The notes: generated by a model from the letters alone, not told the origin. Positions 12,201 through 57,408 are shown, counted from the first letter of the stretch. The stretch: DNA of 64,000 nucleotides from Bacteroidota bacterium (GCA_016717325.1 JADKFV010000002.1:135661-199660); one strand, 5' to 3'. Numbers and translations are program-made.

Positions 12201-15179
12201 GTAACGCAACCAACATTATTGGTAGCAAGCTGCAGCGGCACGAATGTAACGTGCAAAGGCGGATCGACAGGTTCAGCAGCGGTGGTAGCAAGTGGAGGCA
12301 CAGCGCCTTACACATACTTATGGAGCAATGGAAAACCACAGCCTCGAACAACGGTTTATCGGCAGGCACGTACACAGCAACAGTAACAGACTCAAAAGGC
12401 TGCACAGCAAAATGTTCATACACAGTAACAGAGCCAAGCTATGTAGTTGCAACATGCAGTGGCACGAATGTAAATTGCTACGGAGGCAACAATGGCAGCG
12501 CAAGCGTAACAGCAAGTGGCGGCACACCACCATACACATACATGTGGAGCAATGGTAAAACCACCTCATCGAATAACAATTTATCAGCCGGCACGTATAC
12601 AGCTACAGTTACCGATGCAAACGGATGCACAGCAACCTGTTCATACACGGTAACGCAACCAACATTATTGGTAGCAAGCTGCAGCGGCACGAATGTAACG
12701 TGCAAAGGCGCATCGACAGGTTCAGCAGCGGTGGTAGCAAGTGGAGGCACAGCACCTTACACATACTTATGGAGCAATGGAAAAACCACAGCCTCGAACA
12801 ATGGCTTATCAGCAGGCACGTACACAGCAACAGTAACAGACTCAAAAGGCTGCACAGCAAAATGTTCATACACAGTAACAGAGCCAAGCTATGTGGTTGC
12901 AACATGCAGTGGCACGAATGTAAATTGCTACGGAGGCAACAATGGCAGCGCAAGCGTAACAGCAAGTGGCGGCACACCATCATATACATACGTGTGGAGC
13001 AATGGTAAAACCACCTCATCGAATAACAACTTATCAGCCGGCACGTATACAGCTACAGTTACCGATGCCAATGGATGCACAGCAACCTGTTCATACACTG
13101 TAACGCAACCAACATTATTGGTCGCAAGCTGCAGCGGCACGAATGTAACGTGCAAAGGCGGATCGACAGGTTCAGCAGCGGTGGTAGCAAGTGGAGGCAC
13201 AGCGCCTTACACATACTTATGGAGCAATGGAAAACCACAGCCTCGAACAACGGCTTATCAGCAGGCACGTACACAGCACAGTAACGGACTCAAAAGGCTG
13301 CACAGCAAAATGTTCATACACAGTAACAGAGCCAAGCTATGTAGTAGCAACATGCAGTGGCACGAATGTAAATTGCTATGGAGGCAACAATGGCAGCGCA
13401 AGCGTAACAGCAAGTGGCGGCACACCACCATACACATACATGTGGAGCAATGGTAAAACCACCTCATCAAACAGCAACTTATCAGCCGGCACGTATACAG
13501 CTACAGTTACCGATGCAAACGGATGCACAGCAACCTGTTCATACAATGTAACCCAACCAACATTATTGGTAGCTAATTGCAGTGGAACACCAATATCTTG
13601 CAATGGAAAAGATAATGGCACTGCCAGTGTTAGTGCGACAGGAGGTAAACTTCCATACACTTACTTATGGAGCAATGGAAAAACAACCAGCACTATAATT
13701 GGACTTATGGCAGCTACATATTCAGTAACTGTAACGGATGCAAATGGCTGCGTTTCGAATTGTGTATATACTGTGACACAACCAACTCCATTGGTTGCTG
13801 TATGTAGCAAAAGCGGTATCTCTTGCTATGGTGGAAATAACAGTACAGCAACAATGTTTGTTTCAGGCGGCACACCGCCATATGCTTTCTTATGGAACAC
13901 AGGTGCAACCACATCAACTATTTCAGGTTTGTATGCGGGTAATTACACGGTTACTGTTACTGATGCAAATAACTGCCAATCGTCTTGTACATTGTTAATT
14001 GATCAGCCTGATTTGCTGACTGCAACCTGTACTGGTACAAATTTAACGTGCAATGGTGGGTCTACTGGTAGTGCGAATATTTCTGCATCTGGTGGTACTG
14101 GTTCGTACACATATTTGTGGAGTAACGGAGCAACAACAAGTGGCATTAGTAATCTTGGTGCAGGGGTCTATACTGCAACTGTAATAGACATCAACGGTTG
14201 CACAGCGTCTTGTGTAAGGACTATTACTCAGCCAGTTAGCATAGTAATAACAATGTCAGGTTCAAATGCAACATGTAATAATAATGGAACTGCACAAGTA
14301 GTAGCTGTTGGAGGTGTTCTTCCTTATACTTATCTATGGAGCAATGGCGCGACCACATCTTCTATTTCAGGTTTATTTGCAGGTACATATTCCGTAAAAG
14401 TTACTGATGCTGCAGGTTGTTCAAAAAATGGAACGTATACTGTAACACAATCTTCTTCTACGGTATTAACATTAACAGGAACAAATGTTCTTTGCTATGG
14501 TGCTTCAAATGGCACTGCCGTTGCTACAGCTGTAGGTGGAAGCCCGTTCACTTATTTATGGAGTAATGGAAAAACGACTAAGCAAATCGGTTCGTTATCT
14601 GCAGGCATCTACGCTGTAACTGTTACAAATAATTCCGGGTGTACATATACAGCTTCCATAAACATAACTTCACCATCTACATCACTCACTTGTCAGGCGT
14701 CAAGTACAAGTTCGCAAGGAGGTTCTTGTACAGGAACATTAACTGTTAGCTCAACTGGAGGAACTGCTCCATACACATATTTATGGAGTAATGGTGCAAC
14801 AACATGGAATGTTACCGGGGTTTGTGCTGGTCCGTATATAGTAACAGTTACAGATGCGAACGGATGCACATGCAGCAAAACAGTTAAGATAGATGCCGTT
14901 GTTGCTAAAGTTGGTTTTGATAGCCAATATATGCAATTAAGTTTGTCACCAAATCCAACCAGAGGATTAGTGAACATAAAATTTGTGACTGATGAAATTT
15001 TAAACTACACATTGAACATAATGGATGTAAATGGCAGAATTGTTTCAAGTGAAATGCGCCAAAGCGTAGAAGGGGAAAACACATTGTCAGTTGACTTAAG
15101 TACCCTAGATAAAGGTGTTTACCTTGTTAAGATTGATGCTGGGGGCTACACTCATTTCGCTCGAGTTGTCTTACATTAA
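264..15179 (+). CDS. Giant SprB-repeat cell-surface adhesin and T9SS cargo, about 4970 aa if read through. The frame is interrupted at about 2065-2110, 2296, 2465, 2497, 8290, 8705, 10085, 12335 and 13233-13262.
   Basis: Six consecutive ORFs in different frames have overlapping ends. All translate to the same ~75-aa SprB-type repeat: C-x-G-x-N-x-x-C-x-G..G.A.V.ASGG..PYTY.WSNG.T...N..L.AGTYT.TVTD..GC. There are about 63 repeats. The N-terminus (MKKSY...FAIASLLIVVQLSNNACA) is signal-peptide-like. The last 80 aa (LSLSPNPTRGLVNIKF...GVYLVKIDAGGYTHFARVVLH) match the T9SS C-terminal sorting domain. Confidence 0.8.
1365..13553 (+). repeat. Tandem array of about 27 copies of a 450-bp unit. Each unit encodes two SprB repeats. 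Copies differ at only a few positions per unit.
   Basis: Direct comparison of successive units, for example the motif caaccaacattattgg at 1365, 1815, 2306, 2756 and onward at 450-bp spacing up to 13106. Antisense ORFs of identical sequence recur every 450 bp in the ORF track. Confidence 0.9.
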
Positions 15180-32515: not shown

Positions 32516-32581
32516 TGAATTAATAATTCAACAACAAAATCAAAAAACCGTCATACAGAAATGTGTGACGGTTTTTTTTGT
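32516..32581. repeat. Copy B of the 66-bp terminator-containing direct repeat.
   Basis: See copy A. Confidence 0.8.
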
Positions 32582-32621: not shown

Positions 32622-32839
32622 TTAATAAATTATTCTACCGTCTGCCATCTCTATGGTTCTATAACTATTTCTTGCAAAATCGGAATCGTGTGTTACGGCA
32701 ATAATAGTATGATGGTTTTGGTGTGCTAACTGCTTAAAAATATCAAAAATAATTTGGGAATTTTCACTATCTAATTACCGGTTGGTTCATCGCACATAAT
32801 TATTTTAGGTTCGTTAATCATAGCTCTTGCAATAGAAAC
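32622..32839 (-). pseudogene. 3' remnant (about 72 codons) of an ABC-transporter ATP-binding gene, LolD/MacB-like. It has an internal frameshift at about 32772 and is truncated at its 5' side.
   Basis: Reverse-strand translation gives VSIARAMINEPKIIMCDEPTGN, then a 1-nt gap, then LDSENSQIIFDIFKQLAHQNHHTIIAVTHDSDFARNSYRTIEMADGRIIY*. This covers the signature-to-Walker-B-to-H-loop region of an ABC ATPase. A stop codon lies immediately upstream and there is no Walker A. Confidence 0.65.
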
Positions 32840-32878
32840 TTAAAACTATAAACTACGAAACTAAAAACTAAGAAAAAA

Positions 32879-35140: not shown

Positions 35141-36523
35141 TTATTTTTTCCATGCTGCCGACACCGATGGATTGTTATTGAGCGATGCCAGTGCCGGTTC
35201 TTTGGCAAATCGTTGCACATCATTAAACCCAAGGCCTATTGCTTTAAGCATATCGGCTACTGCATTGGCTTCATTGTTTTGTTGCATGTTTACTATTGCT
35301 CCAAAATACCATGCCTCGGTATTGGTTTTATCGACATGTTTATACAAACTTACCCATCGTGCAGCTTCGGCAGGGTTGGTGTATAAATTTCTGTTGCTTA
35401 ACGAATAGGCTGCCAAACTCATGTAGCCTGCAACCCTGCTATACATTGCTGACTGAGGTGTTCTCATTTTGCTTTTGGGCTCTATTTCATTGTAGGTTTT
35501 TCGTATTGAGGCAATATCACCACGACTAATCTGGTCGCCAATTTGATTTTTTATTGAATTTTCTTCGGTAAGTAACGTTTGTTGTATACGTAGTTGTTTA
35601 TTGTAATCTGTTGAATTGGTTATTTCATTTAGTTGTTTCGCGAAAACAGAAACATTTGATTTTCCTGTAAGCAAATCGTTGGCGGTTTTAAGATACTGTA
35701 CTTTTAAAATTAAATCGCTTTCGGTTTTTATTTTTTGTAAAATATTTTTTTCGAACGATACCAATATGTTTTTGTTTTCAATGTTTTTGCTCATTAACAT
35801 TAAACTTTGCAATCCGGTTTCCATATCATTCACACTGCACCATTCGTGTTTACCATGAAATAGTAAGGTGCGTTTTGTAAAAATATTTTCGCTCAATGCA
35901 TCCATTCCATTCACCACATCGGTATAGTTCATATCGCTTGTGCCGGCCATACCAACAATGCTTTTCTTCGATTGTATATTATTTGTTTGTATGGGAAGCA
36001 TGGCAGATTGTGCCAGAGCACCTGATACAAAACCGAATTGACTTAGCGCATAGCAAGCCACTTTTGCTCCACCCGAAAAACCCACAACATAAATTTGTTG
36101 TGCATCGATATTCAATCTTTTTTGGCAATCGGAAAAAAGTGCGTCACAAACATTTTGAGTGGTAGGCCAGTCGTTGCCATTTTTTGAATTATTAGAACCA
36201 ACAAAAATAAAATTCAACGACTCGGCTAGCGACTTGTATTTTTCGAGTGGTAAGGCGCCATCGCCATGTGGGTCGAAAAAAAAGATTGCCCCTTTTTTTG
36301 TTTCTGGACTGTATTCCTTTGGCAAATAAAGTGCATATGATTGTGAAGCATCGGCAATGCAATCAATTTTTTTTATGACTTCGGTTTTTGCAAAATTTTC
36401 AGGCTTAACATCAATGGGTTGTGCGGTTGTTTCAGTTGTGGTTGTTTCCTTTTTTGGTTCCTGTGCATTGCATCCCAACACCAGCGAAAAGAGAATTATT
36501 CTTAAAATTATTCTGGATAGCAT
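35141..36523 (-). CDS. Alpha/beta-hydrolase (esterase-like) lipoprotein with an alpha-helical C-terminal region.
   Basis: LVLGC lipobox. GFSGG (G-x-S-x-G nucleophile elbow). FFFDPHGDG is reminiscent of PHB-depolymerase-family esterases. Confidence 0.55.
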   Translation of the reverse strand: MLSRIILRIILFSLVLGCNAQEPKKETTTTETTAQPIDVKPENFAKTEVIKKIDCIADASQSYALYLPKEYSPETKKGAIFFFDPHGDGALPLEKYKSLAESLNFIFVGSNNSKNGNDWPTTQNVCDALFSDCQKRLNIDAQQIYVVGFSGGAKVACYALSQFGFVSGALAQSAMLPIQTNNIQSKKSIVGMAGTSDMNYTDVVNGMDALSENIFTKRTLLFHGKHEWCSVNDMETGLQSLMLMSKNIENKNILVSFEKNILQKIKTESDLILKVQYLKTANDLLTGKSNVSVFAKQLNEITNSTDYNKQLRIQQTLLTEENSIKNQIGDQISRGDIASIRKTYNEIEPKSKMRTPQSAMYSRVAGYMSLAAYSLSNRNLYTNPAEAARWVSLYKHVDKTNTEAWYFGAIVNMQQNNEANAVADMLKAIGLGFNDVQRFAKEPALASLNNNPSVSAAWKK

Positions 36524-36535
36524 GAGGGTTTAATT

Positions 36536-37231
36536 TTAGGGTGTACTTAATGAAACCGGGATTATTTTTCCATTCATAACGTGATGCGATGCAATGGCGA
36601 AATTGTAAATATAGTCGGCCATGTCTTTTGCATTTACAGGTGCCTCGTAGCCCGGAAATGCCTGTGCAAGCATAGGAGTGTTTACTGCACCAAGGCACAA
36701 ACAGTTTGCCGCAATATTATGTTCCTTCAGTTCTTCGGCCATACATTCGGTGAGGGTACAAAGGGCTCCTTTCGATGAGCTGTATGCCGACAATCCGGCA
36801 AATTTAGAACTGCCTTGATAGCCACCCATACTGCCAATATTAACAATATGCTTTTTGTTTTTACTTGCTTTTAGCAATGGAAGAAGTTTCTGTACTAACA
36901 TTGCCGGAGCAAATACATTGGTGGCATATGATTTTTCAAAATCCTGCAATGTTATTTCTTCGAATGGCTCGCTGATTAATAAACCTGCATTATTTATTAA
37001 AATATCAAGATGATTGAAGTTGTTGTCTTTTAATATTTGTAAAAGATGTTCCGGTTCAGGGTTCGTAATGTCGTATACAGCTATAGTTATATTTTGAGGA
37101 TAATTATTTTTCAGGGCCAATAATGCTTTTTCGTTTCTCGATACCGCTACCACATTGTGTGCTTCACTTGCAAATCGTAAACTCAGTTCGTACCCTATGC
37201 CCGATGAACAGCCGGTTATTAAAACATTCAT
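36536..37231 (-). CDS. Short-chain dehydrogenase/reductase (SDR).
   Basis: VLITGCSSGIGYELS (TGxxxGxG), NNAG, and YSSSK (YxxxK). Confidence 0.85.
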   Translation of the reverse strand: MNVLITGCSSGIGYELSLRFASEAHNVVAVSRNEKALLALKNNYPQNITIAVYDITNPEPEHLLQILKDNNFNHLDILINNAGLLISEPFEEITLQDFEKSYATNVFAPAMLVQKLLPLLKASKNKKHIVNIGSMGGYQGSSKFAGLSAYSSSKGALCTLTECMAEELKEHNIAANCLCLGAVNTPMLAQAFPGYEAPVNAKDMADYIYNFAIASHHVMNGKIIPVSLSTP

Positions 37232-37324
37232 AAATTAATTTCATATAAATTATAGAGTGGCAATGTATAAAAAAAAATCGCCAGAAAAAATAATTCCTGA
37301 CGATTCAGCATTAGCATCTATTTC

Positions 37325-37825
37325 TTATCTTCTGCGCGGAGGAGGGCCATCGCCATCGTTCTTACGGTCGCGCAATTTATCGAGCAATTCTCTTTGAAAT
37401 TCTCTTTCGAGGCGGTAAAGCATGGCAACTTTTTTTACTGGCAAAACCGACTTAAATTGCGCATTGTATTTTTTAACCAGGTCGATTTCTTTTTGACGAT
37501 TGGCCATTTCGGTATCTATCATTTTTTCAACATCGGCATCGCTCATGTTTTTCAGTTCTTCTTTAAAGTCGACACCGGGCTTACGAAACTTGCGCAGTTC
37601 TTTCATTTCGTTATTAAACTGATTATAAACGGGCCAAAATTTTTGTGCTTCTTCAACAGTAAGGTCGAGCCTTTCGGTAATAAAAGCAATTTTAAATTTC
37701 TCAATTTTTTCTTCACGCTCCGGTTTACCGGGCTGTGCATTGGTAGATAATGTTGCGCTAAGCAAAAACAATATCACGGTTAACATTTTTAATTTTCTCA
37801 TTTTTATAATTCTTATTTTATTCAA
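37325..37825 (-). CDS. Periplasmic helical protein (Spy/CpxP- or DUF4890-like), last gene of an ECF sigma operon.
   Basis: Signal peptide. Charged helical repeats. Gene context. Confidence 0.4.
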   Translation of the reverse strand: MNKIRIIKMRKLKMLTVILFLLSATLSTNAQPGKPEREEKIEKFKIAFITERLDLTVEEAQKFWPVYNQFNNEMKELRKFRKPGVDFKEELKNMSDADVEKMIDTEMANRQKEIDLVKKYNAQFKSVLPVKKVAMLYRLEREFQRELLDKLRDRKNDGDGPPPRRR

Positions 37826-38261
37826 GTTGTGATTCTATATCCGATACATCAATATTCGATTCCAATAAATAATCAATCTCATCGGCCGATGTATTTTCGT
37901 TTTCAAATACCTTGGCATCAAGTGCTTCTACTATTAGCGACTGGTCTATGTTGTATACATAATCGCTTTGGTTTATATCATCGGCACTTAGTGGTTCAGG
38001 ATTTATTTGTCGTTTTACATTAAAATATATCATGATAGCAAAGCAGGAAGCAACAGCAAATGATGGTACCAATAATGAAGGTCTTAACAATCGCGACCAG
38101 GCCGATTTTAATTCTTTCTTTTTATTTATCCTATCCTGAATTTGTGAAGGCAAAGCATCAAAATATCCGGCAGGTGGCTTTAGCATATCATTCTTTTTTA
38201 TTGAATGTAATGTGCTGCTCAAATTTTTTAGTTCCTCGTTCCAGTCGTTATTGTTTTCCAT
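37818..38261 (-). CDS. Single-pass membrane protein, putative anti-sigma factor.
   Basis: One TM segment (LLVPSFAVASCFAIMIYF). Lies immediately downstream of the sigma factor gene. The stop overlaps the next gene. Confidence 0.4.
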   Translation of the reverse strand: MENNNDWNEELKNLSSTLHSIKKNDMLKPPAGYFDALPSQIQDRINKKKELKSAWSRLLRPSLLVPSFAVASCFAIMIYFNVKRQINPEPLSADDINQSDYVYNIDQSLIVEALDAKVFENENTSADEIDYLLESNIDVSDIESQLE

Positions 38262-38304
38262 TTTGCGTTTGTTGAATTTTTAGAGTTTGTTTTTTTTACT
38301 TAGT

Positions 38305-38855
38305 TTAATTTGATGTAATAAATTTTTCTATTTTTTTTACTGCATGATGATAATTGGCTTTTAAAGCGCCTGTTGTGAGGCCGGTAATTTTTGCCATTTC
38401 CTCATATTTTAATTCATCATAATATCGCATATTAAATACGGCACGTTGTTGACTTGGTAATTTTAATATCGCTTGCTGTAATTTCAATTCTAATTTATTC
38501 ACATCGATGCCTGCCGTACTAATCAATTTTTTTTCCAGTTCATTTGTAACATCATGTATAGGTAGGAAGAATTTATTTTTCTTTTTTTTCAAAACCCCAA
38601 TGCCTCATTGGTTGCAATGCGATATATCCATGTAAATAATTGTGAGTCTTCACGAAAATTATCAAGGGCATTCCACACTTTTATAAATGTATCCTGCACC
38701 AGGTCGTTGGCATCATCGTGGTCAACTACCATGCGCCTAACGTGATTGTAAACTTTTGCCTGATGTTTCAAAACGATGAGGTTGAAAGCGTAATTCCTGT
38801 TGTCGCCAGTGCGAAACATTTGCACTAATTCTACATCGTCATATTGGTTACTCAA
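38305..38855 (-). CDS. ECF-type sigma-70 factor. Frameshift in an A8 run at 38582-38589.
   Basis: 38589-38855 encodes region 2 (...DLVQDTFIKVWNALDNFREDSQLFTWIYRIATNEALGF). 38305-38592 encodes region 4 (LPSQQRAVFNMRYYDELKYEEMAKITGLTTGALKANYHHAVKKI). The two parts overlap at the poly-A tract. Confidence 0.8.
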
Positions 38856-38869
38856 TTCGGTTTTCAGTT

Positions 38870-39384
38870 TAAATGCAGTTTTTTTAAATGCAGTTTTTAG
38901 TTTAAGATTCGGTTTTTAGTTTATCGTTTCGATATGCAGTTTATAGTTTTTAGTTGCGTTTGATATGAGAATTGTTCTTAGTTATTAGTTACGTTTGCGG
39001 AGAAGAATGTTCTTTGTTCTTTGTTTCGTTTGAGGAGAAGATTGTTCTTTGTTCGTCATTGTAAGGTACGAAGCAATCTCTGCTCAGTCTTTTGTTTCGT
39101 TTGTAGTGCTTAAAGTTTTTAGTTGTTTACGTTTAAAATTTCTCGTCTTGCTAGTAAGTGGATTGCTATTATTCATCCATTGCAAACGGTAAATAAATTC
39201 CGCTGTATTTTAATTTTGAGTTTTAGATAAAAATTTTGTTTGCACTTATTACTTAGCAAAAAACTATGAAAGCTTTGTACTCGCAATGACGAACTGTGAA
39301 CAAAAAACTAAAAACAAAGAACTAAAACTATAAACTCAAAACTGTAAACCAAAAACAAAGAACTAAAAACTAACAACTCAAAAC
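38870..39384. repeat. Low-complexity intergenic region. It contains degenerate ~35-bp tandem units (cgtttg..gagaaga.tgttctttgtt) and an inverted complementary arm rich in aaactaaaaac/aaagaactaaaa.
   Basis: Read directly. 38900-39100 has at least 4 imperfect tandem units. 39290-39384 is approximately the reverse complement of that motif family. The stop codon of the tkt-C gene is embedded in ...aaaactcaaaac. Confidence 0.6.
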
Positions 39385-40341
39385 TCAAAACTTCCTCTTT
39401 ATTACTGCTAATACTTTCTCCACAATGGCATTTGAAGTTAGTCCGTACTTTACCATCAACTCTTCGGGCTTTCCACTTTCACCAAAGCTATCATTTACCC
39501 CAACAAATTCCTGTGGTGTGGGCAAATTGCGCGAAAGAAATTGTGCCACTGCATCTCCCAGTCCTCCGTTTAATTGATGTTCTTCGGCTGTTACCACACA
39601 CCCGGTTTTTTTTATTGAATTTAGGATGGCTGTTTCGTCTAATGGTTTAATGGTATGTAAATTTAATAGGTCGCACTGTATGCCTTGATGCGATAATATT
39701 TCTATTGCTTCTATGGCTTTCCAAACTAAATGTCCTGTTGCGCAAATGGTAACATCACTACCTTCATTCATTATAACGGCTTTGCCAATTTCAAAAACCT
39801 GATCGGTAGGGGTAAAGTTAGGAACAACGGGCCGTCCAAAGCGGAGGTATACCGGGCCATCATATTTTGCAATAGCAATGGTTGCAGCTTTTGTTTGGTT
39901 ATAATCGCATGGATTAATAACGGCCATTCCCGGCAGCATGCGCATAAGTCCAATGTCTTCGAGTATTTGATGTGTGGCGCCATCTTCGCCCAAAGTAAGG
40001 CCGGCATGGGAGGCACATATTTTCACATTCTTACCCGAGTAGGCTATTGATTGGCGTATTTGATCGTAAACCCTTCCGGTCGAAAAATTGGCAAACGTTC
40101 CAGTGTAAGGAATTTTGCCGCCTATGGTGAGGCCTGCAGCAATTCCCATCATATTTGCTTCGGCAATACCGCATTGTAAAAACCTGTCGGGGAATTCTTT
40201 TGCAAAGGCATCCATTTTTAGCGAGCCTGTAAGGTCGGCACACAATGCAACCACTGCAGGGTTAGTTTTTCCCAGTTCGAGCAAACCGGCACCAAAGCCT
40301 GAACGTGTATCTTTATTGTCTAGAACAGTATGTTTTGTCAT
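39385..40341 (-). CDS. Transketolase C-terminal subunit (pyrimidine-binding plus C-terminal domains).
   Basis: 318 aa. [14 protein letters not shown]... and LRFGRP are transketolase/DXS-like. Confidence 0.85.
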
Positions 40342-40451
40342 TCAATTTTTTGTTTGAGGCAAATCAATATTTATTTATGTTCACTTGCAAGCAGTGTTCA
40401 CAAGTGTATACATAATGTGGAAAAACTAAAGGTTTTAAAAACAGTGAATAG

Positions 40452-41945
40452 CTACTTTACTTCCTGCATCAATTTTTTTATTCCTACCGAAAGTACTATC
40501 AGTACAACACCTGCTATAAGTGCATACTCAGCGAGTTGTAAATATCCATCGGTGTAGGAGGTAAGTTTTGTCATCAGCGATGCATCTTTATCCGGAGTAG
40601 ACATGCCTGCACCAAGTAAGCCTGCAGCGTATTGACCATAAGCACTTGCCAGAAACCACATACCCATCATCATGCCCGATAAATGCTTTGGCGATAGTTT
40701 AGTCATGATGGATAAACCAATTGGCGATAAACACAACTCTGCAATAGTGATTACTAAATATGCAAATGTGAAAACATTCAATGATGCTTTGCCATCAGCA
40801 TCGACAAAGAATTTGTTATAGTAAAAAACATAGAACGATGCTGCTAAAAATAAAAATGCAATTCCAAATTTTATTACTGTGTTGGGTTCAAGTTTTTTCT
40901 TTGCCAGCCACAACCATAGCAATCCAATCAATGGACTAAAAATAATGACGAAAAAAGAATTTGATGTATTGTTTATTACATTGGGATCAATTTGTAATCC
41001 GGCAAGATTGAAGCGAAGATTTTTTTCGGCAAACAAAGAAAGTGACCCACCACTTTGCTCAAAGAAGGCCCAAAAAATGATGGAGAATAAAATAAATACC
41101 AATGCAGCAATTAATTTTTTTTGTGCGTTGATGTTTTTTGTTTTCACAACTTCGTACAAAAAATAAATCAAAGCAAGGGGTCCTACAGTGTACATAAAAT
41201 AATCTGTGTACGAAGTATTTTGTATCATGATTAATATGAGTGGAATACAAACTAATGCACCGATATACACAAATATTTCACGCATTTTTCGTTTGCTATC
41301 TTCTATGTGCAGCAATGGCGAATTACCAATAGGGCCTAAATATTTTTTAGTAATTGTAAAAGTTACTACGCCAATTATCATAACAATTGCTGCAGCCAAA
41401 AAAGCGTAACTCCAACTATGATACTTTCCTAAGTAAACACACAAAGCACCGCCCAGCAATGCGCCAATATTTATTCCCGAATAAAACAAACCAAAGCCGG
41501 CATCTCTGCGTGGGTCACCTTCTTTGTACAAGTCGCCAACCATTGATGAAATGTTAGGCTTAAAAAATCCTGTGCCAATTATGGAAAGCGTAATACCGAT
41601 GTAGAAAAATTCTTTTGGTGATGCAGCAATAATAAGGTTACCCACAATCATGATTATGCCTCCAAAGAATAAAGATTTTTTGAAGCCTAATATTTTATCG
41701 GCACAGATGCCGCCAATAAAAGTGAATGCATATACAAATGCCTGTATGGCTCCATACTTTAAATTGGCCTCCTTGTCGGAATAGGATAACCCTAATATTT
41801 TATCGGCCATAAAAATAGTGAGCACACCACGCATGCCATAGAAACAAAAGCGTTCCCACATTTCGGTAAGAAACAACATCCATAGTTGCTTAGGATATTT
41901 ACCTTCAAAATTTTGAATTTCGTCTAATGTCAATTCTTTATTCAT
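40452..41945 (-). CDS. Second POT/PTR2-family peptide transporter.
   Basis: QLWMLFLTEMWERFCFYGMRGVLTIFM. Polytopic membrane protein. Confidence 0.9.
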   Translation of the reverse strand: MNKELTLDEIQNFEGKYPKQLWMLFLTEMWERFCFYGMRGVLTIFMADKILGLSYSDKEANLKYGAIQAFVYAFTFIGGICADKILGFKKSLFFGGIIMIVGNLIIAASPKEFFYIGITLSIIGTGFFKPNISSMVGDLYKEGDPRRDAGFGLFYSGINIGALLGGALCVYLGKYHSWSYAFLAAAIVMIIGVVTFTITKKYLGPIGNSPLLHIEDSKRKMREIFVYIGALVCIPLILIMIQNTSYTDYFMYTVGPLALIYFLYEVVKTKNINAQKKLIAALVFILFSIIFWAFFEQSGGSLSLFAEKNLRFNLAGLQIDPNVINNTSNSFFVIIFSPLIGLLWLWLAKKKLEPNTVIKFGIAFLFLAASFYVFYYNKFFVDADGKASLNVFTFAYLVITIAELCLSPIGLSIMTKLSPKHLSGMMMGMWFLASAYGQYAAGLLGAGMSTPDKDASLMTKLTSYTDGYLQLAEYALIAGVVLIVLSVGIKKLMQEVK

Positions 41946-41979
41946 ACTTAAATTTTTGGTTTAGAAATTTTTGTGCAAG

Positions 41980-42336
41980 CTATTTTATTTTTATTTCGAT
42001 AAGTGGATTCCAGAATAATTTTTTGAATTCCACAACTTTATCTTCTGCTACTTTTATTCCTTCTTTTTCGAGCAACATTTGCATTTCGTTATTATTGCCA
42101 AAATGATGCTTGCCTGTCAACATACCATTTCTATTCACTACGCGGTGTGCAGGTACCTTTGGCCTGGCTGTGTGCGATGCATTCATTGCCCAGCCTACCA
42201 TACGCGATGTTCCTTTTGTTCCAATACTATTAGCAACCGCACCATATGAAGTTACCCTGCCCCTGGGTATTAATCTTACCACGGCATATACCATTTCAAA
42301 AAAATCAATTGTTGTTTTGTTTAAATTTTGTGGCAT
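41980..42336 (-). CDS. MGMT-family DNA-binding domain protein lacking the acceptor cysteine (alkyltransferase-like, ATL).
   Basis: 118 aa. Core ...PAHRVVNRNG... sits where O6-alkylguanine transferases have PCHRV. The helix-turn-helix region VVRLIPRGRVTSYGAVA is conserved. Confidence 0.6.
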   Translation of the reverse strand: MPQNLNKTTIDFFEMVYAVVRLIPRGRVTSYGAVANSIGTKGTSRMVGWAMNASHTARPKVPAHRVVNRNGMLTGKHHFGNNNEMQMLLEKEGIKVAEDKVVEFKKLFWNPLIEIKIK

Positions 42337-42479
42337 TTTTTTATTTTAAGTCTTCAATTTGTTAGCAAGTATAAAAATATTAGTTGGAAATATTAATAGT
42401 AGTAACTTAATTTGCCTTAGTCATTCGAGGTCACCTGCCTTTATATCTGAACAAAAAATCTTTTAAATTTTATATTCAT

Positions 42480-45400
42480 ATGCAAAAAATTTTTACTTAT
42501 CTAAAACTGTGTTTTGTTTTACTGTGTGTAAGTGTTACACTAAGTCATGCACAAAACGGAAGCATTGCCGGTAAAGTTTCCGACATAAATAAACAGCCTT
42601 TGCCGGGCGTAAATATAGTTATTGAAAGTACTACCAAAGGTTCGGCAACTGATGTTAATGGAATGTACAATATTAAAGATGTGTCTCCGGGCAAGTATAC
42701 CATTGTTGCAACTTTTATAGGTTTCAATACCATTAAAAAAGAGGTAGTGGTAAATGCAAATGCTGTTACTACAGTGAACTTAACCATGACAGAAAACACT
42801 GTGCTGCTAAACGAAATTGTAGCCGTAGGTTATGGTACTACCAAGAAAAAGGATTTAACAGGTAGTGTTACATCGCTTAGTACAAAAGATTTTAATGTGG
42901 CCACAGTGTCATCGCCCGAACAATTGATTCAGGGTCGTGTTGCCGGTGTTCAAATAATCAGTAATAGTGGTGCACCGGGTGCCGGTAGTCGTATACGCAT
43001 ACGCGGAGGCACATCGCTCAATGCCAGCAACGACCCTCTTATTGTAATTGATGGTGTACCAGTAGATAACAATACTTTGTCAGGCGCCTCGAGCACATTG
43101 GCACTTATCAATCCTGATGATATCGAAAATATGACAGTTTTAAAAGATGCATCGGCAGCCGCAATTTATGGTTCGCGTGCTGCAAATGGTGTAATATTAA
43201 TTACTACTAAAAAAGGCTATGGCAAAAAATTTGGCGTATCATATAATACTACAAATTCTTTATCGACCATAGTTGGTTATGTTCCGGTATTCGATGGCGA
43301 TCAGTTTCGTGCACTTGTAAACAAAGGAGGCACCGCAGCACAAATAAAATTATTGGGCGATGCCAATACAAACTGGCAAAAAGAAATATACCGTAAAGCG
43401 TTTACCACCGATCATAATATTTCGTTTGGTGGTGGCATTGCTACAGTACCTTATCGTGTTACATTAGGTTACCTTGGACAGGAGGGTGTTTTAAAAACAT
43501 CGAAAATGGATCGCTATGCATTAGGTTTCAATATGCAACCATCATTGCTGAAAGACAAATTGAAAATAAATTTGAACTTCCGTTATGTGATGAGTAAAAA
43601 TGAATTTGCTAATGTTGGCGCAATTGGATCGGCAGTAGCATTTGATCCTACTCAACCGGTAAATAGTGATACCACTTCGCTTGGTGGATATTTTGAATGG
43701 ACCGATGCGGCAGGCACTCCAAATCCTTTAGCGCCACGCAATCCTGTAAGTTTGATTTTGCTTCGCGATGATTTAAGTAACGTTAACCGTACTATTGGAA
43801 ATGTGCAGTTAGATTACTCTATACCTATGGTGTCAGGATTACGCACTGTGCTCAATCTTGGTACCGATCTTCAAAGTGGTAAAGGGACCGTATTTGTGCC
43901 AAAAGAAGCCGGAGCAAGTTATAATAAAAACCCGCGCTTAAGCGGCTCGTGGAACGAATATGACCAAAGTAAATCCAATCAACTATTGGAATTTTATGTA
44001 AACTATAATAAAGAGTTTGCCAAAATAAAAAGTAGATTCGATGCGGTAGTAGGATACTCTTATCAAATATGGCTGACCGAAACACCGGCTTTTCCCCGTT
44101 ATAATGCCGACAGAGATACCATAGTTGCAAAGGCCGGCCTTGCTGCCAAAACCGATAATGTTTTATTGTCGTATTACGGTCGTCTGAATTATACATTTAA
44201 TCAAAAATATTTGCTCACTGCAACTTTGCGTCAGGATGCATCATCACGATTTAGTAAAGATGTACGCAATGGATATTTTCCATCGGCAGCACTTGCATGG
44301 CGAATAATTGACGAACCATTTATGAAAAACGCAAAAGTGTTTTCCGATTTTAAACTTCGCCTTGGATATGGTATTACTGGCCAGCAGGATGGTATAGCAG
44401 ATTATGGTTACATACCAAACTACAGCGGAAGTAATGCCACAGCCTATTATGTTTTTGGTGGCGATACAGTACCATTATTGCGTCCCGATGGATACGATGC
44501 TAACCTGAAATGGGAACAAACGGCAACAACAAATTTTGGTTTGGATTATGGTTTTTTTAACGGACGCATTTATGGTAGTATCGATATTTATAAAAAAGTT
44601 ACATCCGATTTATTGGCTACCATACCGGCACCTGCAGGAAGTAACCTCACAAACAATATCCTTACCAATGTTGGAAGCATAGAAAATAAAGGATTTGAGT
44701 TTAGTGCCAATTTTGTTCCTTACGATAGCAAAAAATTCTTTTGGGAAACAGGATTTAATTTCAGCATAAATAAAAATACAATTACAAAATTATCGAAAGT
44801 ACAAAACCCAAAAGACCAGGGAATTTTTAGCGGTGGCATTGCCGGTGGTACGGGAAATACCATTCAGATAAATTCTGTGGGCTATCAGGTTTTCGATTTT
44901 TACTGCCTGCAACAATTATACGATAACAACGGAAATCCAATTGTGCCAACAGGCGATGCAGTGAAAGATACTTTGGCATTTGCCGATTTGAACAACGATG
45001 GAAAAATTACCGGTGACGACCGTTATCGTTACAAAAACCCTGAGCCAAAATTATATGCCGGATTTTATACACGCTTTGGATACAAAAATTGGGACTTAGG
45101 ATTTTTCCTTCGTGGCAGTTTCGGAAATTACGTTTACAATAATGTGCAATCGCAACGTGGTGTATTCGATCAAATTGGTTCTAATTATTTATCGAACCTC
45201 ACTACAGATTACGAAAATACATTGTTTCAAAAAACCAAAGACTACGTTTACTTTTCTGACTATTATGTAAAGAAGGCATCCTTTATTCGTTGCGATAATC
45301 TTAACCTTGGTTACAATTTTAAAAATGTATACAAAGACAAAATATCCTTACGTGCATCTTTCATTATTCAAAATGTTTTTGTCATTACAAAGTATGATGG

Positions 45401-53070: not shown

Positions 53071-56000
53071 TTACTGTTTTACGAAAGTATTATTCATTAC
53101 ACCTTGAGGAGTAATTATTTTAAGTGTAAAAATTCCTTTACCTAAGTTGCTTGTGTTTATAATGCCATTGGTAAGTTGGCCATTGAGAATAACTCGGCCT
53201 GTTAAATCCAGCACTTCAAATTTTGCATTTTGTAATTTTGAATTATCAGATACGTATACATGCATAGTTGTTGTTGCAGGATTAGGATAAAGCATAAACG
53301 AAGATTGCGGTGTTTCTGATAAGCCAATTGAGCTGAATAATTCTACATCGTCCCAATAGTATGTTTTTTGTCCCGCAGTTGCACCATCGGTACCGAAGTT
53401 AAAGAATATGGAGGCCATGTCGTATAAGTATGCGGGGTTGAAAACAGCAGTTCCTGGTGCTTCGTTATCAAAATCGAACACAAGATATTCCCAGGTATTT
53501 ACTCCTGTAGTGAGGGCTTCTGTTTCAACACTTTGAGTTGGCTGTCCGTGCACTTCCACTTTCAACCGTACCGGAATATTTGCATCGGGCGAGTAAACAC
53601 GAACACGCATTTTGTGATTATTTGCCGTGAAAGGAATAACATTAGCAAAGCCAAGATTTGTTCCAATGGTGGTACCGGCCCATGTTTGTGCTGCTGCAGT
53701 TTTTGTAGTAATAGCTACTTTGTTTGCGGCATTGTTTGGGTCGGGCCCAAGTACCGATGCATTTCCTCCAAAATCGGTAAGGGTATAATCTACATTTAAT
53801 GAATCGAAATATACAGGAAGGTTTATTTGATTTAAACCTGTGCCACCACCCGTAACAAAACGAATTTCGTCCTGGTAGAATGTAAAGTTTGCACTGCTAT
53901 CGCCCATCACACCTAAATCATAAATGAAGACTAAATCGGTATAAGTATTTGATGCTGTTCCCGAAAAATCCCAACTCAATTCTTCCCATGCATTTGCTAA
54001 TGTAGTAGTATCCGATTTTTCGACAAATCCACCGGCAGAGTTTTCTAATTTGAAAAGAACAGGACATCCGGTGCGAGGAGAATAGACAAACATTTTAAAT
54101 GTGTTGTTGGTGGTAAAGTCTAATGCCGATGCAAGAGTTAATTTACTACCTCCCCAAACCTGACCAACATTTTTTATCATTCGCAGCACTTTAGGCGTTG
54201 TATCCAATCCTCCCGGATACGGGTTTGTCATTAATGTTGTTATGCCACCATCGAAGTCTGTCATGGTGTATGTAATTGTAGAATCATCATAAGTAATTGG
54301 CAATACCAATCCAAGATTTGCACCCGATACAAATTCTACATCATCGAAGAGATAAGTTTTTTGTCCTGCAGTTGCACCATCGGTACCGAAGTTGAAAAAT
54401 ATGGAAGCCATATCGTATGGAAAAGCAGCGTTGAAAGCTGCCGTACCCGGAGCTTCATTATCGAAATCGAAAGTTAACCATTCCCATGTATTTACACCTG
54501 TGGTTAATGCTTCTGTTTCTACCGATTGTCCGGGTTGTCCGTGCACTTCCACTTTCAATCGCACAGGAATATTTGCATCGGGTGAGTATACACGCACTCT
54601 CATTTTTCTATCGACTGCGGTAAAAGGAATAACCGAAGCAAAACCAAGATTGGTTCCAATGGTAGTGCCAGCCCATGTTTGCGCGGTTACATCTTTTGTT
54701 GTAATAGCAACAGTGTTTGCAGCATTGTTTGGATCGGGACCAAGCACAGTAGAGTTGCCACCAAAATCGGTAACGGTATAATCAACATTAGCAACATCGA
54801 ATGTTACAGGCAAATCAATTTGATTTAATGCACCCGATACAAATTCTACATCATCGAAGAGGTAAGTTTTTTGTCCTGCAGTTGCACCATCAGTTCCGAA
54901 GTTAAAAAATATGGAAGCCATATCGTATGGAAATGCTGCATTGAAAGCTGCCGTACCCGGAGCTTCATTATCGAAATCGAAAGTTAACCATTCCCAGGTA
55001 TTTACTCCTGTGGTTAATGCTTCTGTTTCTACCGATTGTCCGGGTTGTCCGTGCACTTCCACTTTCAATCGCACTGGAATATTTGCATCGGGTGAGTAAA
55101 CACGCACTTGCATTTTTCTATCGACTGCTGTAAAAGGAATAACCGAAGCAAAACCAAGATTGGTTCCAATGGTAGTGCCGGCCCATGTTTGCGCGGTTAC
55201 ATCTTTTGTTGTAATAGCAACTGTGTTTGCAGCATTGTTTGGATCGGGACCAAGCACAGTTGAGTTACCACCAAAATCGGTAACGGTATAATCAACATTA
55301 GCAACATCGAATGTTACAGGCAAATCAATTTGATTTAATGCACCCGATACAAATTCTACATCATCGAAGAGGTAAGTTTTTTGTCCTGCAGTTGCACCAT
55401 CGGTACCGAAGTTAAAAAATATGGAAGCCATATCGTATGGAAATGCTGCATTGAAAGCTGCCGTACCCGGAGCTTCATTATCGAAATCGAAAGTTAACCA
55501 TTCCCAGGTATTTACTCCTGTGGTTAATGCTTCTGTTTCTACCGATTGTCCGGGTTGTCCGTGCACTTCCACTTTCAATCGCACTGGAATATTTGCATCG
55601 GGTGAGTATACACGCACTCTCATTTTTCTATCGACTGCGGTAAAAGGAATTACCGAAGCAAAACCAAGATTGGTTCCAATGGTAGTGCCAGCCCATGTTT
55701 GCGCGGTTACATCTTTTTGTTGTAATAGCCGGGACCAAGCACAGTAGAGTTGCCACCAAAATCGGTAACGGTATAATCAACATTAGCAAGGCAGATACAG
55801 GCAAATCAATTTGATTTAATGCCCGATACAAATTCTAACATCGAAGAGATAAGTTTTTGGTCCTGGCGGGGGCCCAACCGTGCCGGGGGGGAAAAAAAGG
55901 GGGGGAAAAGGGATCGTATGGAAATGCAGCGTTGAGCCCGGAGCTTCATTATCGAAATCGAAAGTTAACCATTCCCAGGTATTTACTCCTGTGGTTAATG

Positions 56001-57408
56001 CTTCGGTTTCTACCGATTGACCGGGTTGTCCGTGCACTTCCACTTTCAATCGCACCGGAATATTTGCATCGGGTGAGTAAACACGCACTTGCATTTTTCT
56101 ATCGACTGCCGTAAAAGGAATTACCGAAGCAAAACCAAGATTGGTTCCAATGGTAGTACCGGCCCATGTTTGCGCGGTTACATCTTTTGTTGTTATAGCA
56201 ACAGTGTTTGCAGCATTGTTTGGATCGGGACCAAGAACAGTAGAGTTGCCACCAAAATCGGTAACGGTATAATCAACATTAGCAACATCGAAAGTTACAG
56301 GCAAATCAATTTGATTTAATGCACCCGCTACAAATTCTACATCATCGAAGAGATAAGTTTTTTGTCCTGCAGTTGCACCATCGGTACCGAAGTTAAAAAA
56401 TATGGAAGCCATATCGTATGGAAATGCTGCATTGAAAGCTGCCGTACCCGGAGCTTCATTATCGAAATCGAAAGTTAACCATTCCCATGTATTTACACCT
56501 GTGGTTAATGCTTCTGTTTCTACCGATTGTCCGGGTTGTCCGTGCACTTCCACTTTCAATCGCACAGGAATATTTGCATCGGGTGAGTATACACGCACTT
56601 GCATTTTTCTATCGACTGCTGTAAAAGGAATTACCGAAGCAAAACCAAGATTGGTTCCAATGGTAGTACCAGCCCATGTTTGCGCGGTTACATCTTTTGT
56701 TGTTATAGCAACAGTGTTTGCAGCATTGTTTGGATCGGGACCAAGCACAGTAGAGTTGCCACCAAAATCGGTAACAGTATAATTCACATTAGCCAGGTCG
56801 AAAGTTACCGGCAAATCAATTTGTGCCGGTGGAGCTTGCATCAATTTTACATTTTCGAAGTAGTATGTTTTTGCGCCTGCTGTTGCTCCATCGGTACCGA
56901 AGTTAAAAAATATGGATGCCATGTCGTAAGCGTAAGCTGCATTGAAAGCTGCCGTGCCAGGAGCTTCATTATTGAAATTAAAATTTAACCACTCCCATGC
57001 ATTTGCCGTTGTTGTCATGGCCTCTGTTTCTACCGATTGGCCTGCTTGTCCATGTACTTCCACTTTCAGTCGCACAGGAATATTTGCATCGGGTGAGTAT
57101 ACGCGCATTCTCATTTTTCTGTTATTTGCAGTAAATGGAATTGGATTTGCAAAACCAAGATTGGTACCAACGGTAGTGCCGGCCCATGTTTGCGCGGTTG
57201 CACCTTTTGTTGTTATGGCGACAGTATTGGCAGCATTGGTTGGATCGGGACCAAGCACGGTTGAATTGCCACCAAAATCGGTAACGGTATAATCAACATT
57301 TGTGAGGTCGAATGTTACGGGCAAATCAATTTGATTTAATTGAGCCTGTGTTGTTCCGAAGCTGAATGCTAAAAGAAACAACAGAACAGATTTGATAATT
57401 TTTTGCAT
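53071..57408 (-). CDS. T9SS-secreted surface protein built from about 8 tandem ~170-aa beta-sandwich (CBM/lectin-like) repeats. The sequence is corrupted at about 55700-55940.
   Basis: Signal peptide MQKIIKSVLLFLLAFSFGTTQAQ. Repeats NQIDLPVTFD.ANVDYTVTDFGGNSTVLGPDP...RVYSPDANIPVRLKVEVHGQPGQSVETEA...FFNFGTDGATAGQKTY. C-terminus SSFMLYPNPATTTMHVYV...GIFTLKIITPQGVMNNTFVKQ is the T9SS CTD. Confidence 0.7.
54300..56830 (-). repeat. Near-identical tandem DNA repeats with a period of about 510-525 bp, inside the T9SS repeat protein gene.
   Basis: Identical antisense ORFs (MEAISYGNAALKAAVPGASLSKSKVNHS...) recur at 54392, 54911, 55421 and 56402. Protein repeat units are letter-for-letter identical. 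Confidence 0.7.

Follow-up and report, generated by a model that had tools for sequence, protein, structure and literature searches.

Between the gene for an ECF sigma-70 family factor and the gene for the transketolase C-terminal subunit (tktC) of an uncultured Bacteroidota lies about 0.5 kb of DNA whose two ends carry complementary families of short repeats, and the question raised by this locus is whether such a region regulates its neighbours, encodes a structured RNA, constitutes a mobile element, or is repeat debris. The region is part of a 64,000-nucleotide stretch (GCA_016717325.1 JADKFV010000002.1:135661-199660), which as a whole we call the window. The original prediction, made from the sequence alone, had described low-complexity inverted repeats here and had offered three readings: a family of dispersed intergenic repeats, an array of regulator binding sites upstream of the sigma factor, or an sRNA or other structured element. 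From comparisons of the sequence within and between genomes, we regard this DNA as probably non-coding, a mosaic that combines two independent repeat classes and lacks a dedicated cellular function. The features on which this interpretation is based are collected in Table 1.

The limits that had been given for the intergenic region were right, with the sigma gene starting at 38855 on the minus strand and tktC, on the same strand, terminating at the opposite edge. In the window the sigma gene is divided into two ORFs by a 1-nt deletion within a T-run, and it is unbroken (183 aa) in three related loci (L001, L002 and L004). The window appears to come from a long-read assembly with indel errors, so this frameshift may be an artefact. 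The right arm, the core and unit 2 (Table 1) were confirmed in independent short-read contigs. The same locus, with tktC 99% identical, is found in several metagenome assemblies and in the MAG GCA_044227515.1, and the nearest named relative as judged by tktC (81%) is Aurantibacillus circumpalustris, of the Sphingobacteriales.

Table 1 Features of the sigma-tktC intergenic region, its flanking genes, and the second array of the window.
Feature	Position	Strand	Basis
ECF sigma-70 family gene	38305-38855	-	Sigma70_r2 and Sigma70_r4_2 on separate ORFs
Outer left arm, GTTTTTA/GTTTATA heptamers interleaved with TTTAAATGCAGTTTT and 19-20-bp units	38860-38955	+	TRF
Three 35-bp units, each 2-3 GTTNNNN heptamers followed by CGTTTGAGGAGAAGATT	38939-39053	+	TRF
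SRM-like unit 2, near-canonical, TTCGTCATTGTAAGGTACGAAGCAATCTC	39052-39082	+	Sequence match
Core, single-copy, AT-rich	39084-39265		Stops in all six frames
SRM-like unit 1, decayed, CGTCATTGCGAGTACAAAGCTTTCATAG	39266-39293	-	Exact CGTCATTGCGAG match
Right arm, degenerate AACNNNN array (GTTNNNN on tktC coding strand), ~14 units	39294-39395	+	TRF
tktC, transketolase C-terminal subunit	39385-40341	-	Pfam PF02779 and PF02780
Second heptamer array, ~6 units	32833-32875	+	TRF, 5.9 copies

The arm next to tktC (right arm) is a heptamer array for which TRF reported a period of 7, 13.6 copies and 75% matches at 39299-39392. Its self-identity at period 7 is 0.68 (39294-39395), the peaks of the self-identity spectrum are at periods 7, 14 and 21, and its composition is 62% A and 5% G. 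The claim that this arm reaches the tktC stop codon held in a slightly stronger form, as the first GTTTTGA heptamer takes in the final codon of the gene together with its TGA stop (39385-39387). In the sigma-proximal (left) arm (38860-39135), complementary GTTNNNN words are mixed with 15-, 19- and 35-bp units. The ~35-bp tandem units that had been predicted are present as four copies with 62-73% identity (at 38939, 38974, 39009, and 39080), and TRF returned a period of 35, 3.1 copies and 79% matches at 38946-39054. Farther out, TTTAAATGCAGTTTT forms an exact 15-bp doublet (38868-38898), 19/20-bp units lie at 38860-38949, and this outer part, read on the sigma sense strand, forms an A-rich leader whose end lies 5-20 nt short of the start codon. 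The strings quoted in the original prediction are present in the sequence, and the reverse-complement relation that it had seen between the arms is reflected in 28 inverted-repeat pairs, the innermost of which (39042-39061 / 39284-39303) is 85% complementary.

The AT-richness of the region and the degeneracy of its units would be in keeping with random AT-rich drift, with no repeat-generating process involved. Shuffled sequences nevertheless failed to reproduce either the word counts or the phased runs: AACTAAAAACT, allowing at most one mismatch, occurs 23 times in the window versus 3.9 expected, a count reached in 0 of 100 shuffles, and phased AACT runs (at least 4) occur three times in the window and in none of 50 shuffles. 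The period-7, -14 and -21 signal and the occurrence of the same unit types in other genomes also argue against drift, which is refuted by the shuffles and the self-identity spectrum and to which we assign almost no probability. Most of the AACTAAAAACT matches (17 of 23) fall within the 0.5-kb region or at 32837-32869. The latter interval belongs to a shorter relative that had been reported beside an ABC gene remnant at 32843-32875, and this second array is indeed present. Counted from the stop codon, it lies 7 nt past an S8 protease/T9SS gene; it directly touches the truncated 5' end of the frameshifted ABC ATPase remnant, and is 100% identical in L001 and L004. All arrays in the window are intergenic, at two loci in 64 kb. 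The heptamer types represented are AACTAAA, AACTCAA, AACAAAG, and AACTGTA; TAACTGA is not among them, and TAAACTGA-like words are found only singly. Matching types were found in unrelated Bacteroidota contigs (AACAAAG in L028, AACTCAA in L243, AACTGAA in L207, and AACTAAA in L016).

Arrays of this kind have been described before. In a few Bacteroidetes, TAACTGA and "other heptamer direct repeats" are intergenic and in some cases located just after stop codons (MacGregor 2015, PMC4679880), and the same study reported that heptamer arrays are absent from close relatives and that contigs break inside them, and suggested a role in rearrangement. The window arrays share with STRRs and TAACTGA-type arrays (Beggiatoaceae, Cyanobacteria, and some Bacteroidetes; PMC4679880) the tandem intergenic 7-nt units, the forward orientation just before start codons and reverse orientation just after stop codons, and the mixing of several heptamer types within one intergenic region; they are likewise missing at the same locus in close relatives, with contigs ending inside them and local gene rearrangement around them. 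They differ in their unit (AACTNAA/AACAAAG, the same kind of repeat but another family), in their degeneracy (~70% period-7 identity), and in that the two arrays of the region form an inverted repeat around other repeat units.

These other units escaped the original prediction. The inner end of each arm is a "TTCGTCATTGCGAG..GAAGCAATC" unit, and the two units, both of which start with TTCGTCATTG, face each other. Unit 1, which is present in all strain haplotypes, has an intact 5' CGTCATTGCGAG and has lost the 3' GAAGCAATC (GCAATC) when compared with the consensus of the motif family. Unit 2, which occurs in the window and L011 and is missing from L001-type strains, keeps ATTGT...GCAAT-C, and its GGTACGAAGCAATC variant is also found in Maribacter (L104) and Legionella (L022). 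The predicted hairpins are weak (-3.2 kcal/mol for unit 2 and -1.4 kcal/mol for unit 1, versus -9 kcal/mol for NTS, a Neisseria repeat considered below). The spacer between the arms, put at ~160 bp by the original prediction, does exist, but it measures about 190 nt (39084-39271) and has features of its own: beyond the CGTCATTG... unit that closes each arm, more fragments of that unit occur within the spacer, namely TTCATCCATTGCAAAC at 39172-39187 (+) and GGATTGCT at 39160-39167. The fragment at 39172-39187 is an inverted partner of unit 1, and pairing between the two is predicted by RNAalifold. A decayed GIY-YIG gene was rejected as an identity for the core, as six-frame translation gave a best tblastn match of only E = 0.66.

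Both inner junctions are in a single register, GTTNNNN-GTT-CGTCATTG, which suggests that a module consisting of a heptamer array, GTT and CGTCATTG... underwent inverted duplication, and the inverted arrangement of this module accounts for the palindromic look of the region. The 35-bp units may derive from the heptamer-plus-SRM module by internal deletion, given that two of the four aligned to the SRM unit with p = 0.01-0.02, values that are suggestive only.

A scan for the motif GTTNNNNGTTCGTCATTGCGAG recovered at least 118 species-level genome contigs. According to their record titles, the matches listed include Alpha-, Beta-, and Gammaproteobacteria, Campylobacterota (Helicobacter), Bacteroidota, and Bacillota (Clostridia), as well as Chloroflexota, Verrucomicrobiota, Fibrobacterota (Fibrobacter), Zixibacteria, and others. 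Among these matches the motif most often takes the form of an inverted pair, CGTCATTGCGAG-x-GAAGCAATCCAG ... CTGGATTGCTTC-x-CTCGCAATGACG, spanning 60-150 nt (71 of 126 copies), and the sole recurrent Pfam family in 148 small motif-adjacent ORFs is GIY-YIG (PF01541). Eleven of the 12 GIY-YIG ORFs in ~1.7 Mb of motif-bearing loci, again among the matches listed, lie at most 120 nt from a motif unit, and several are bracketed by inverted units (L036, L107, L126, and L147). The proteins they encode are 96-98 aa long and have a Tyr/Tyr/Glu spacing equal to that of Y6/Y17/E64 in SsnA (residues from PMC11893778); their matches to NCBIfam and PDB are weak and uninformative. No Rfam matches were found in 15 loci with typical motif copies, and searches of the literature for the motif string or the peptides that it encodes gave no relevant match. 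A possible link between the motif and a four-helix-bundle family (23S rRNA IVS protein) was dropped, as no such family occurs in the 148 neighbouring ORFs.

The nearest described counterpart is the system of Ssn-related motifs (SRM/NTS; Chenal 2025, PMC11893778). SsnA, a GIY-YIG nuclease of 94 aa, binds the Neisseria NTS in single-stranded form and cleaves the DNA a few nucleotides upstream of it; cleavage depends critically on the three bases that precede the palindrome, and binding on the C that follows it (PMC11893778). Homologues of ssnA occur in many phyla, where they are flanked by SRM, the NTS-ssnA-NTS layout is IS-like, and genes adjoining dRS3/NTS repeats show greater diversity (PMC11893778). 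CGTCATT...AATC(Y) is common to the motif and the NTS consensus CGTCATTCCCGCGMAVGCGGGAATCYRG, and these positions include the bases critical for cleavage and binding in that study. Further likenesses are the placement of these flanks (CGTCATT 5' and AATC(Y) 3') around a short palindrome, the equal overall length of the Bacteroidota variant, the orientation of the unit, and the occurrence of the motif in intergenic regions of many phyla, often as inverted pairs and tied to genes for single-domain GIY-YIG proteins of ~95 aa. The stem is different (ATTGC/GCAAT here, ATTCCCGC/GCGGGAAT in NTS), the copies in the window are decayed, and no GIY-YIG (ssn-like) gene is found in the 64-kb window. The published pattern, HGTCWYN(0-2)YYVSBRHN(0-5)WNVSBRGN(0-2)RNCYNB, matches NTS but not the CGTCATTGCGAG...GAAGCAATC variant, nor anything in the window, and a single motif unit forms a weak 5-bp hairpin of -2.4 kcal/mol, versus -9 kcal/mol for NTS. 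Because the stem differs, the published pattern misses the unit and a single unit folds weakly, we call the CGTCATTGCGAG-x-GAAGCAATC unit SRM-like instead of a full SRM; the support for this assignment, which comes from motif and neighbourhood comparisons, is good but indirect.

Heptamers and SRM-like units adjoin in the region, which raises the question of whether the two are linked in general. Our first genome pattern carried a forced GTTNNNNGTT (GTT) prefix and returned window-like Bacteroidota loci (L016, L028, L049, L056, L057, L104, L116, and L129); its matches were enriched for arrays because this prefix was forced. An unprefixed metagenome scan (~160 motif copies) therefore served as the unbiased sample, and on it an obligate link between array and motif was rejected. 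In this sample there was no period-7 excess upstream of the motif (0.282 vs 0.258 in controls), GTT preceded the motif at positions -3 to -1 in 1.3% of copies, and no signal of a 7-nt tandem duplication was seen at the array-motif junction. Arrays lay at most 300 nt from a unit in 26% of cases, versus 16% expected (23 arrays). The lack of a link in the unprefixed sample leads us to regard heptamers and motif as independent repeat classes that share intergenic space.

Comparison among strains and relatives shows how the region changes. L001-type haplotypes, whose tktC is 99% identical (protein), keep the right arm and the core but have neither unit 2 nor the 35-bp units; a different duplicated ~70-nt unit takes their place in the left arm, and the net difference is a loss of ~107 nt relative to the window. 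Over the length that its contig covers, L011 agrees with the window. The last ~75 nt before the sigma start codon are common to the window and L001, and the sequence further upstream is rearranged. Between the window and L001 the right arm is 97.8% identical with no change in length, the core 88.6%, tktC 96.6% (with a synonymous divergence of ~0.13), the flanking POT gene 99.6% and a 147-aa gene 99.8%. The core, with 11.4% divergence versus ~0.13 at synonymous tktC sites, thus changes about as fast as silent sites, and across the three haplotypes it appears to evolve about neutrally, an argument that is soft because strain divergence is patchy along the whole locus. The lower divergence of the right arm from L001 (2.2%) relative to the core could reflect constraint or homogenisation. 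Of 29 predicted core pairs in the three haplotypes, none showed compensatory changes and five were broken in some haplotype.

Orthologous intergenic regions were found within the species only, and synteny already differs at ~82% tktC identity. In these more distant relatives tktC ends in ...KRK-TAA and is followed by pyruvate kinase, with tktN upstream, and arrays are absent; in the window its C-terminus is ...KRKF-TGA, finished by the first heptamer. Both arrays of the window are located at rearrangement junctions, one at this synteny breakpoint and the other against the truncated ABC gene. Eight of the 11 strain contigs stop within the region. Together with the second locus in the window and the occurrence of the unit types in unrelated Bacteroidota, these contig ends bear out a dispersed intergenic repeat family in kind; the core, for its part, was rejected as a dispersed element, since blastn across the window and ~1.7 Mb of related loci matched it to nothing but the corresponding locus of other strains.

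The same observations bear on the possibility that the whole ~0.44-kb unit is a single MITE, with the arms as its terminal inverted repeats, that inserted at the 3' end of tktC. Its inverted architecture, the synteny breakpoint and overlap with the stop codon, the assemblies that break in the region, and the way in which SRM units elsewhere bracket GIY-YIG genes like IS ends would all fit an insertion of this sort. We nonetheless find it very unlikely, as the arms are variable arrays that lack defined ends, the borders at 38856/39395 show no target-site duplication, the core occurs as a single copy across the window and ~1.7 Mb of related loci, and L001-type strains lack one "end" while keeping the rest of the region.

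Regulatory readings centre on the left arm, in which the A-rich heptamers and 15-35-bp units would act as operators, a promoter array or an unstructured translation leader that sets sigma expression. The sigma-sense array AAACTAAAAAC... extends to within ~20 nt of the start codon, and the last ~75 nt before that codon are common to the haplotypes. Bacteroidota are not known to rely on Shine-Dalgarno pairing, and translation of the sigma gene could be aided by the A-rich stretch in front of it. Translational control has also been proposed for forward TAACTGA repeats just upstream of start codons (MacGregor 2015, PMC4679880). Against such a role, the arm beyond these ~75 nt is rearranged by a ~107-nt indel although the 5' region of the sigma gene is 98.8% identical, the same heptamers occur in the opposite sense downstream of tktC and of the protease gene, the units are degenerate and not identical sites, and neither a promoter (sigma-70-type or Bacteroidetes -33/-7) nor an intrinsic terminator is found in the region. 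A regulatory leader therefore seems improbable to us, and the regulator binding-site array of the original prediction fares no better, given that this arm differs structurally between strains with ~99% identical sigma genes, that similar arrays lie downstream of unrelated genes, and that a promoter consensus is absent.

The arms could also act as RNA, either by forming a ~100-bp duplex when co-transcribed (a processing site, insulator or terminator) or through a core that encodes an sRNA. Folding the two arms as one hairpin, a check that the original prediction had proposed, is possible in a common transcript: the minus-strand fold has the arms paired at -115.5 kcal/mol versus -85.2 +/- 5.9 kcal/mol in shuffles (z = -5.1), the L001 haplotype pairs too (z = -2.6), and a transcript-stabilising role has been suggested for STRR hairpins located between cyanobacterial genes (PMC2670836). 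Such pairing is nevertheless to be expected of any two inverted arrays that belong to one heptamer family. Rfam 15 gave no match at the gathering threshold in the window, and the permissive-threshold matches in the region are at chance level (E >= 4), so that no threshold yields an Rfam family; an intrinsic terminator is likewise absent, the left arm is not conserved between strains, and the core, which diverges at about the synonymous rate, has no compensatory pairs (0 of 29) and broken pairs in some haplotypes. On these grounds the predicted sRNA or structured element is not upheld, and we think a functional RNA unlikely. The exclusion of CRISPR by the original prediction was correct, as the units of 7, 15, 19 and 35 nt are degenerate and contiguous, in contrast to identical 24-48-nt repeats with unique spacers of similar length. 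A replication origin was also rejected, there being neither a skew switch nor an excess of DnaA boxes.

We thus return to a mosaic of two repeat classes as the probable interpretation. The first class is AACNNNN/GTTNNNN heptanucleotide tandem repeats, of the same kind as cyanobacterial STRRs and Bacteroidetes heptamer arrays, and strand slippage together with unequal exchange among units presumably creates and alters them. The second would consist of decayed copies of a hairpin/inverted-repeat unit, CGTCATTGCGAG-x-GAAGCAATC, as an SRM/NTS variant. In other bacteria SRM spread in an IS/MITE-like manner as motif-ssn-motif units and solo copies, and CGTCATTGCGAGGNACGAAGCAATC as a single strand is a candidate target of a putative Bacteroidota Ssn homologue. 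At the synteny breakpoint, an array replaces the ancestral stop codon of tktC and provides a new last codon and stop, and the region changes by ~100-nt indels between near-identical strains. Effects on neighbouring genes, including the tktC stop codon, the A-rich sigma leader and a possible long RNA hairpin upon read-through, would be incidental.

A further possibility assigns the two classes a joint role, in which heptamer arrays and SRM-type units would mark or create recombination and rearrangement hot spots in Bacteroidota, as a counterpart of the Neisseria intergenic mosaic elements (NIMEs). Cuts would be made by an Ssn-type ssDNA nuclease in the heptamers immediately 5' of CGTCATT, and their repair would delete sequence, duplicate it in inverted orientation, or replace the ends of genes. 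This scenario fits the new stop codon of tktC, the truncation of the ABC gene, and the ~100-nt indels that separate strains, but arrays are not enriched beside the motif in the unbiased sample and the junction shows no 7-nt duplication signal, and we consider a joint role of this kind unlikely. NIMEs and the BIMEs of enterobacteria are built, between genes, from short hairpin repeats with an orientation that take turns with units of other kinds; their make-up differs from strain to strain, and their neighbour genes are more diverged than average. By analogy the region appears similar to either of them, with the differences that its other units are heptamer microsatellite-like arrays and not 50-150-bp RS units, and that it is known as a single locus and not as a genome-wide family. 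BIMEs are also mentioned in the description of SRM (PMC11893778).

Several consequences follow for the annotation and biology of these genomes. A striking inverted-repeat region beside a sigma gene would here be repeat debris, and labels such as sRNA, operator array or CRISPR-like locus should be avoided for it as a matter of caution. The very widespread CGTCATTGCGAG...GAAGCAATC repeat gives rise to many spurious "hypothetical protein" calls. AACNNNN arrays recur in unrelated Bacteroidota and at this locus are placed exactly at gene-end and rearrangement junctions, a position in line with previous indications of an association between these arrays and local rearrangement of the genome. Lastly, because the motif behaves in an SRM-like manner and yet escapes the published pattern, the reach of the Ssn/SRM system has probably been underestimated.

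We compared the tktC interval (39385-41945) with the corresponding loci of relatives whose TktC is ~82% identical (L130, L132 and L134). In the lineage of the window, tktC is separated from tktN, with a gene for a POT-family transporter on one side of it and the sigma gene on the other. The order in L130-L133 is tktN-X-tktC-pyruvate kinase, and in Aurantibacillus circumpalustris (L134) tktC lacks an upstream tktN.

Among strains carrying the same locus (window versus L001 and L011), divergence over 36000-44000 is very uneven and patchy: for example, 29 of 200 nt differ within the SusC-like gene (43800-43999), and only 0-1 of 200 nt along most of the POT gene. This pattern suggests mosaic recombination among co-occurring strains.

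Strain comparisons also bear on two genes with interrupted reading frames (see table). The ABC ATPase remnant is identical in L001 and L004 and is therefore real; it is followed by a strong terminator, a hairpin with a T-run, at ~32545-32580. The ECF sigma gene is intact in strain contigs L001, L002 and L004, where it encodes 183 aa, and relative to these a 1-nt deletion in a T-run divides it into two ORFs in the window. Either the gene has become a pseudogene in the strain of the window, or the deletion is a sequencing error in the homopolymer.

Features annotated in the window.
Feature	Positions	Strand	Remarks
Giant repeat-containing gene	264-15179	+	225/450-nt units, ~51 copies
C-terminal remnant of ABC ATPase	32640-32830	-	..IARAMINEPKIIMCDEPTGN..; 5' two-thirds missing, internal frameshift
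ECF sigma gene	38305-38855	-	two ORFs in the window; break at 38570-38600
Tandem 510-nt units	53071-57408	-	at least 6, within two large ORFs

Two larger repeat-bearing regions lie elsewhere in the window. The giant gene, which may resemble SprB-type gliding adhesins, has units 96% identical at period 450. Its reading frame is split among six or more overlapping ORFs, a sign of either frameshift errors or genuine decay. The 510-nt units were not reported by TRF because their period exceeds 500; in the copy at 55839-55901, a stretch of scrambled sequence with many G/C homopolymers coincides with the ORF break and is probably assembly noise.

Among the matches listed from genome and metagenome motif scans (loci L012-L254), many bacterial phyla carry the repeat CGTCATTGCGAG-x-GAAGCAATC(C/T), which the published degenerate pattern for the Ssn-related motif does not detect. 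At these loci, GIY-YIG genes of ~96 aa flank the repeat or are bracketed by it, and the repeat gives rise to numerous spurious ORFs, with peptides such as ..RHCEERSDEAIQ.. and ..LLRFARNDE... In Maribacter sp. LLG6340-A2 (L104), an entire module, running from a CAGTNNN heptamer array through CGTCATTGCGAGGTACGAAGCAATC to a ~90-nt tail, is present as a direct tandem duplicate, demonstrating that a heptamer array and its adjoining unit can be duplicated together in one piece.
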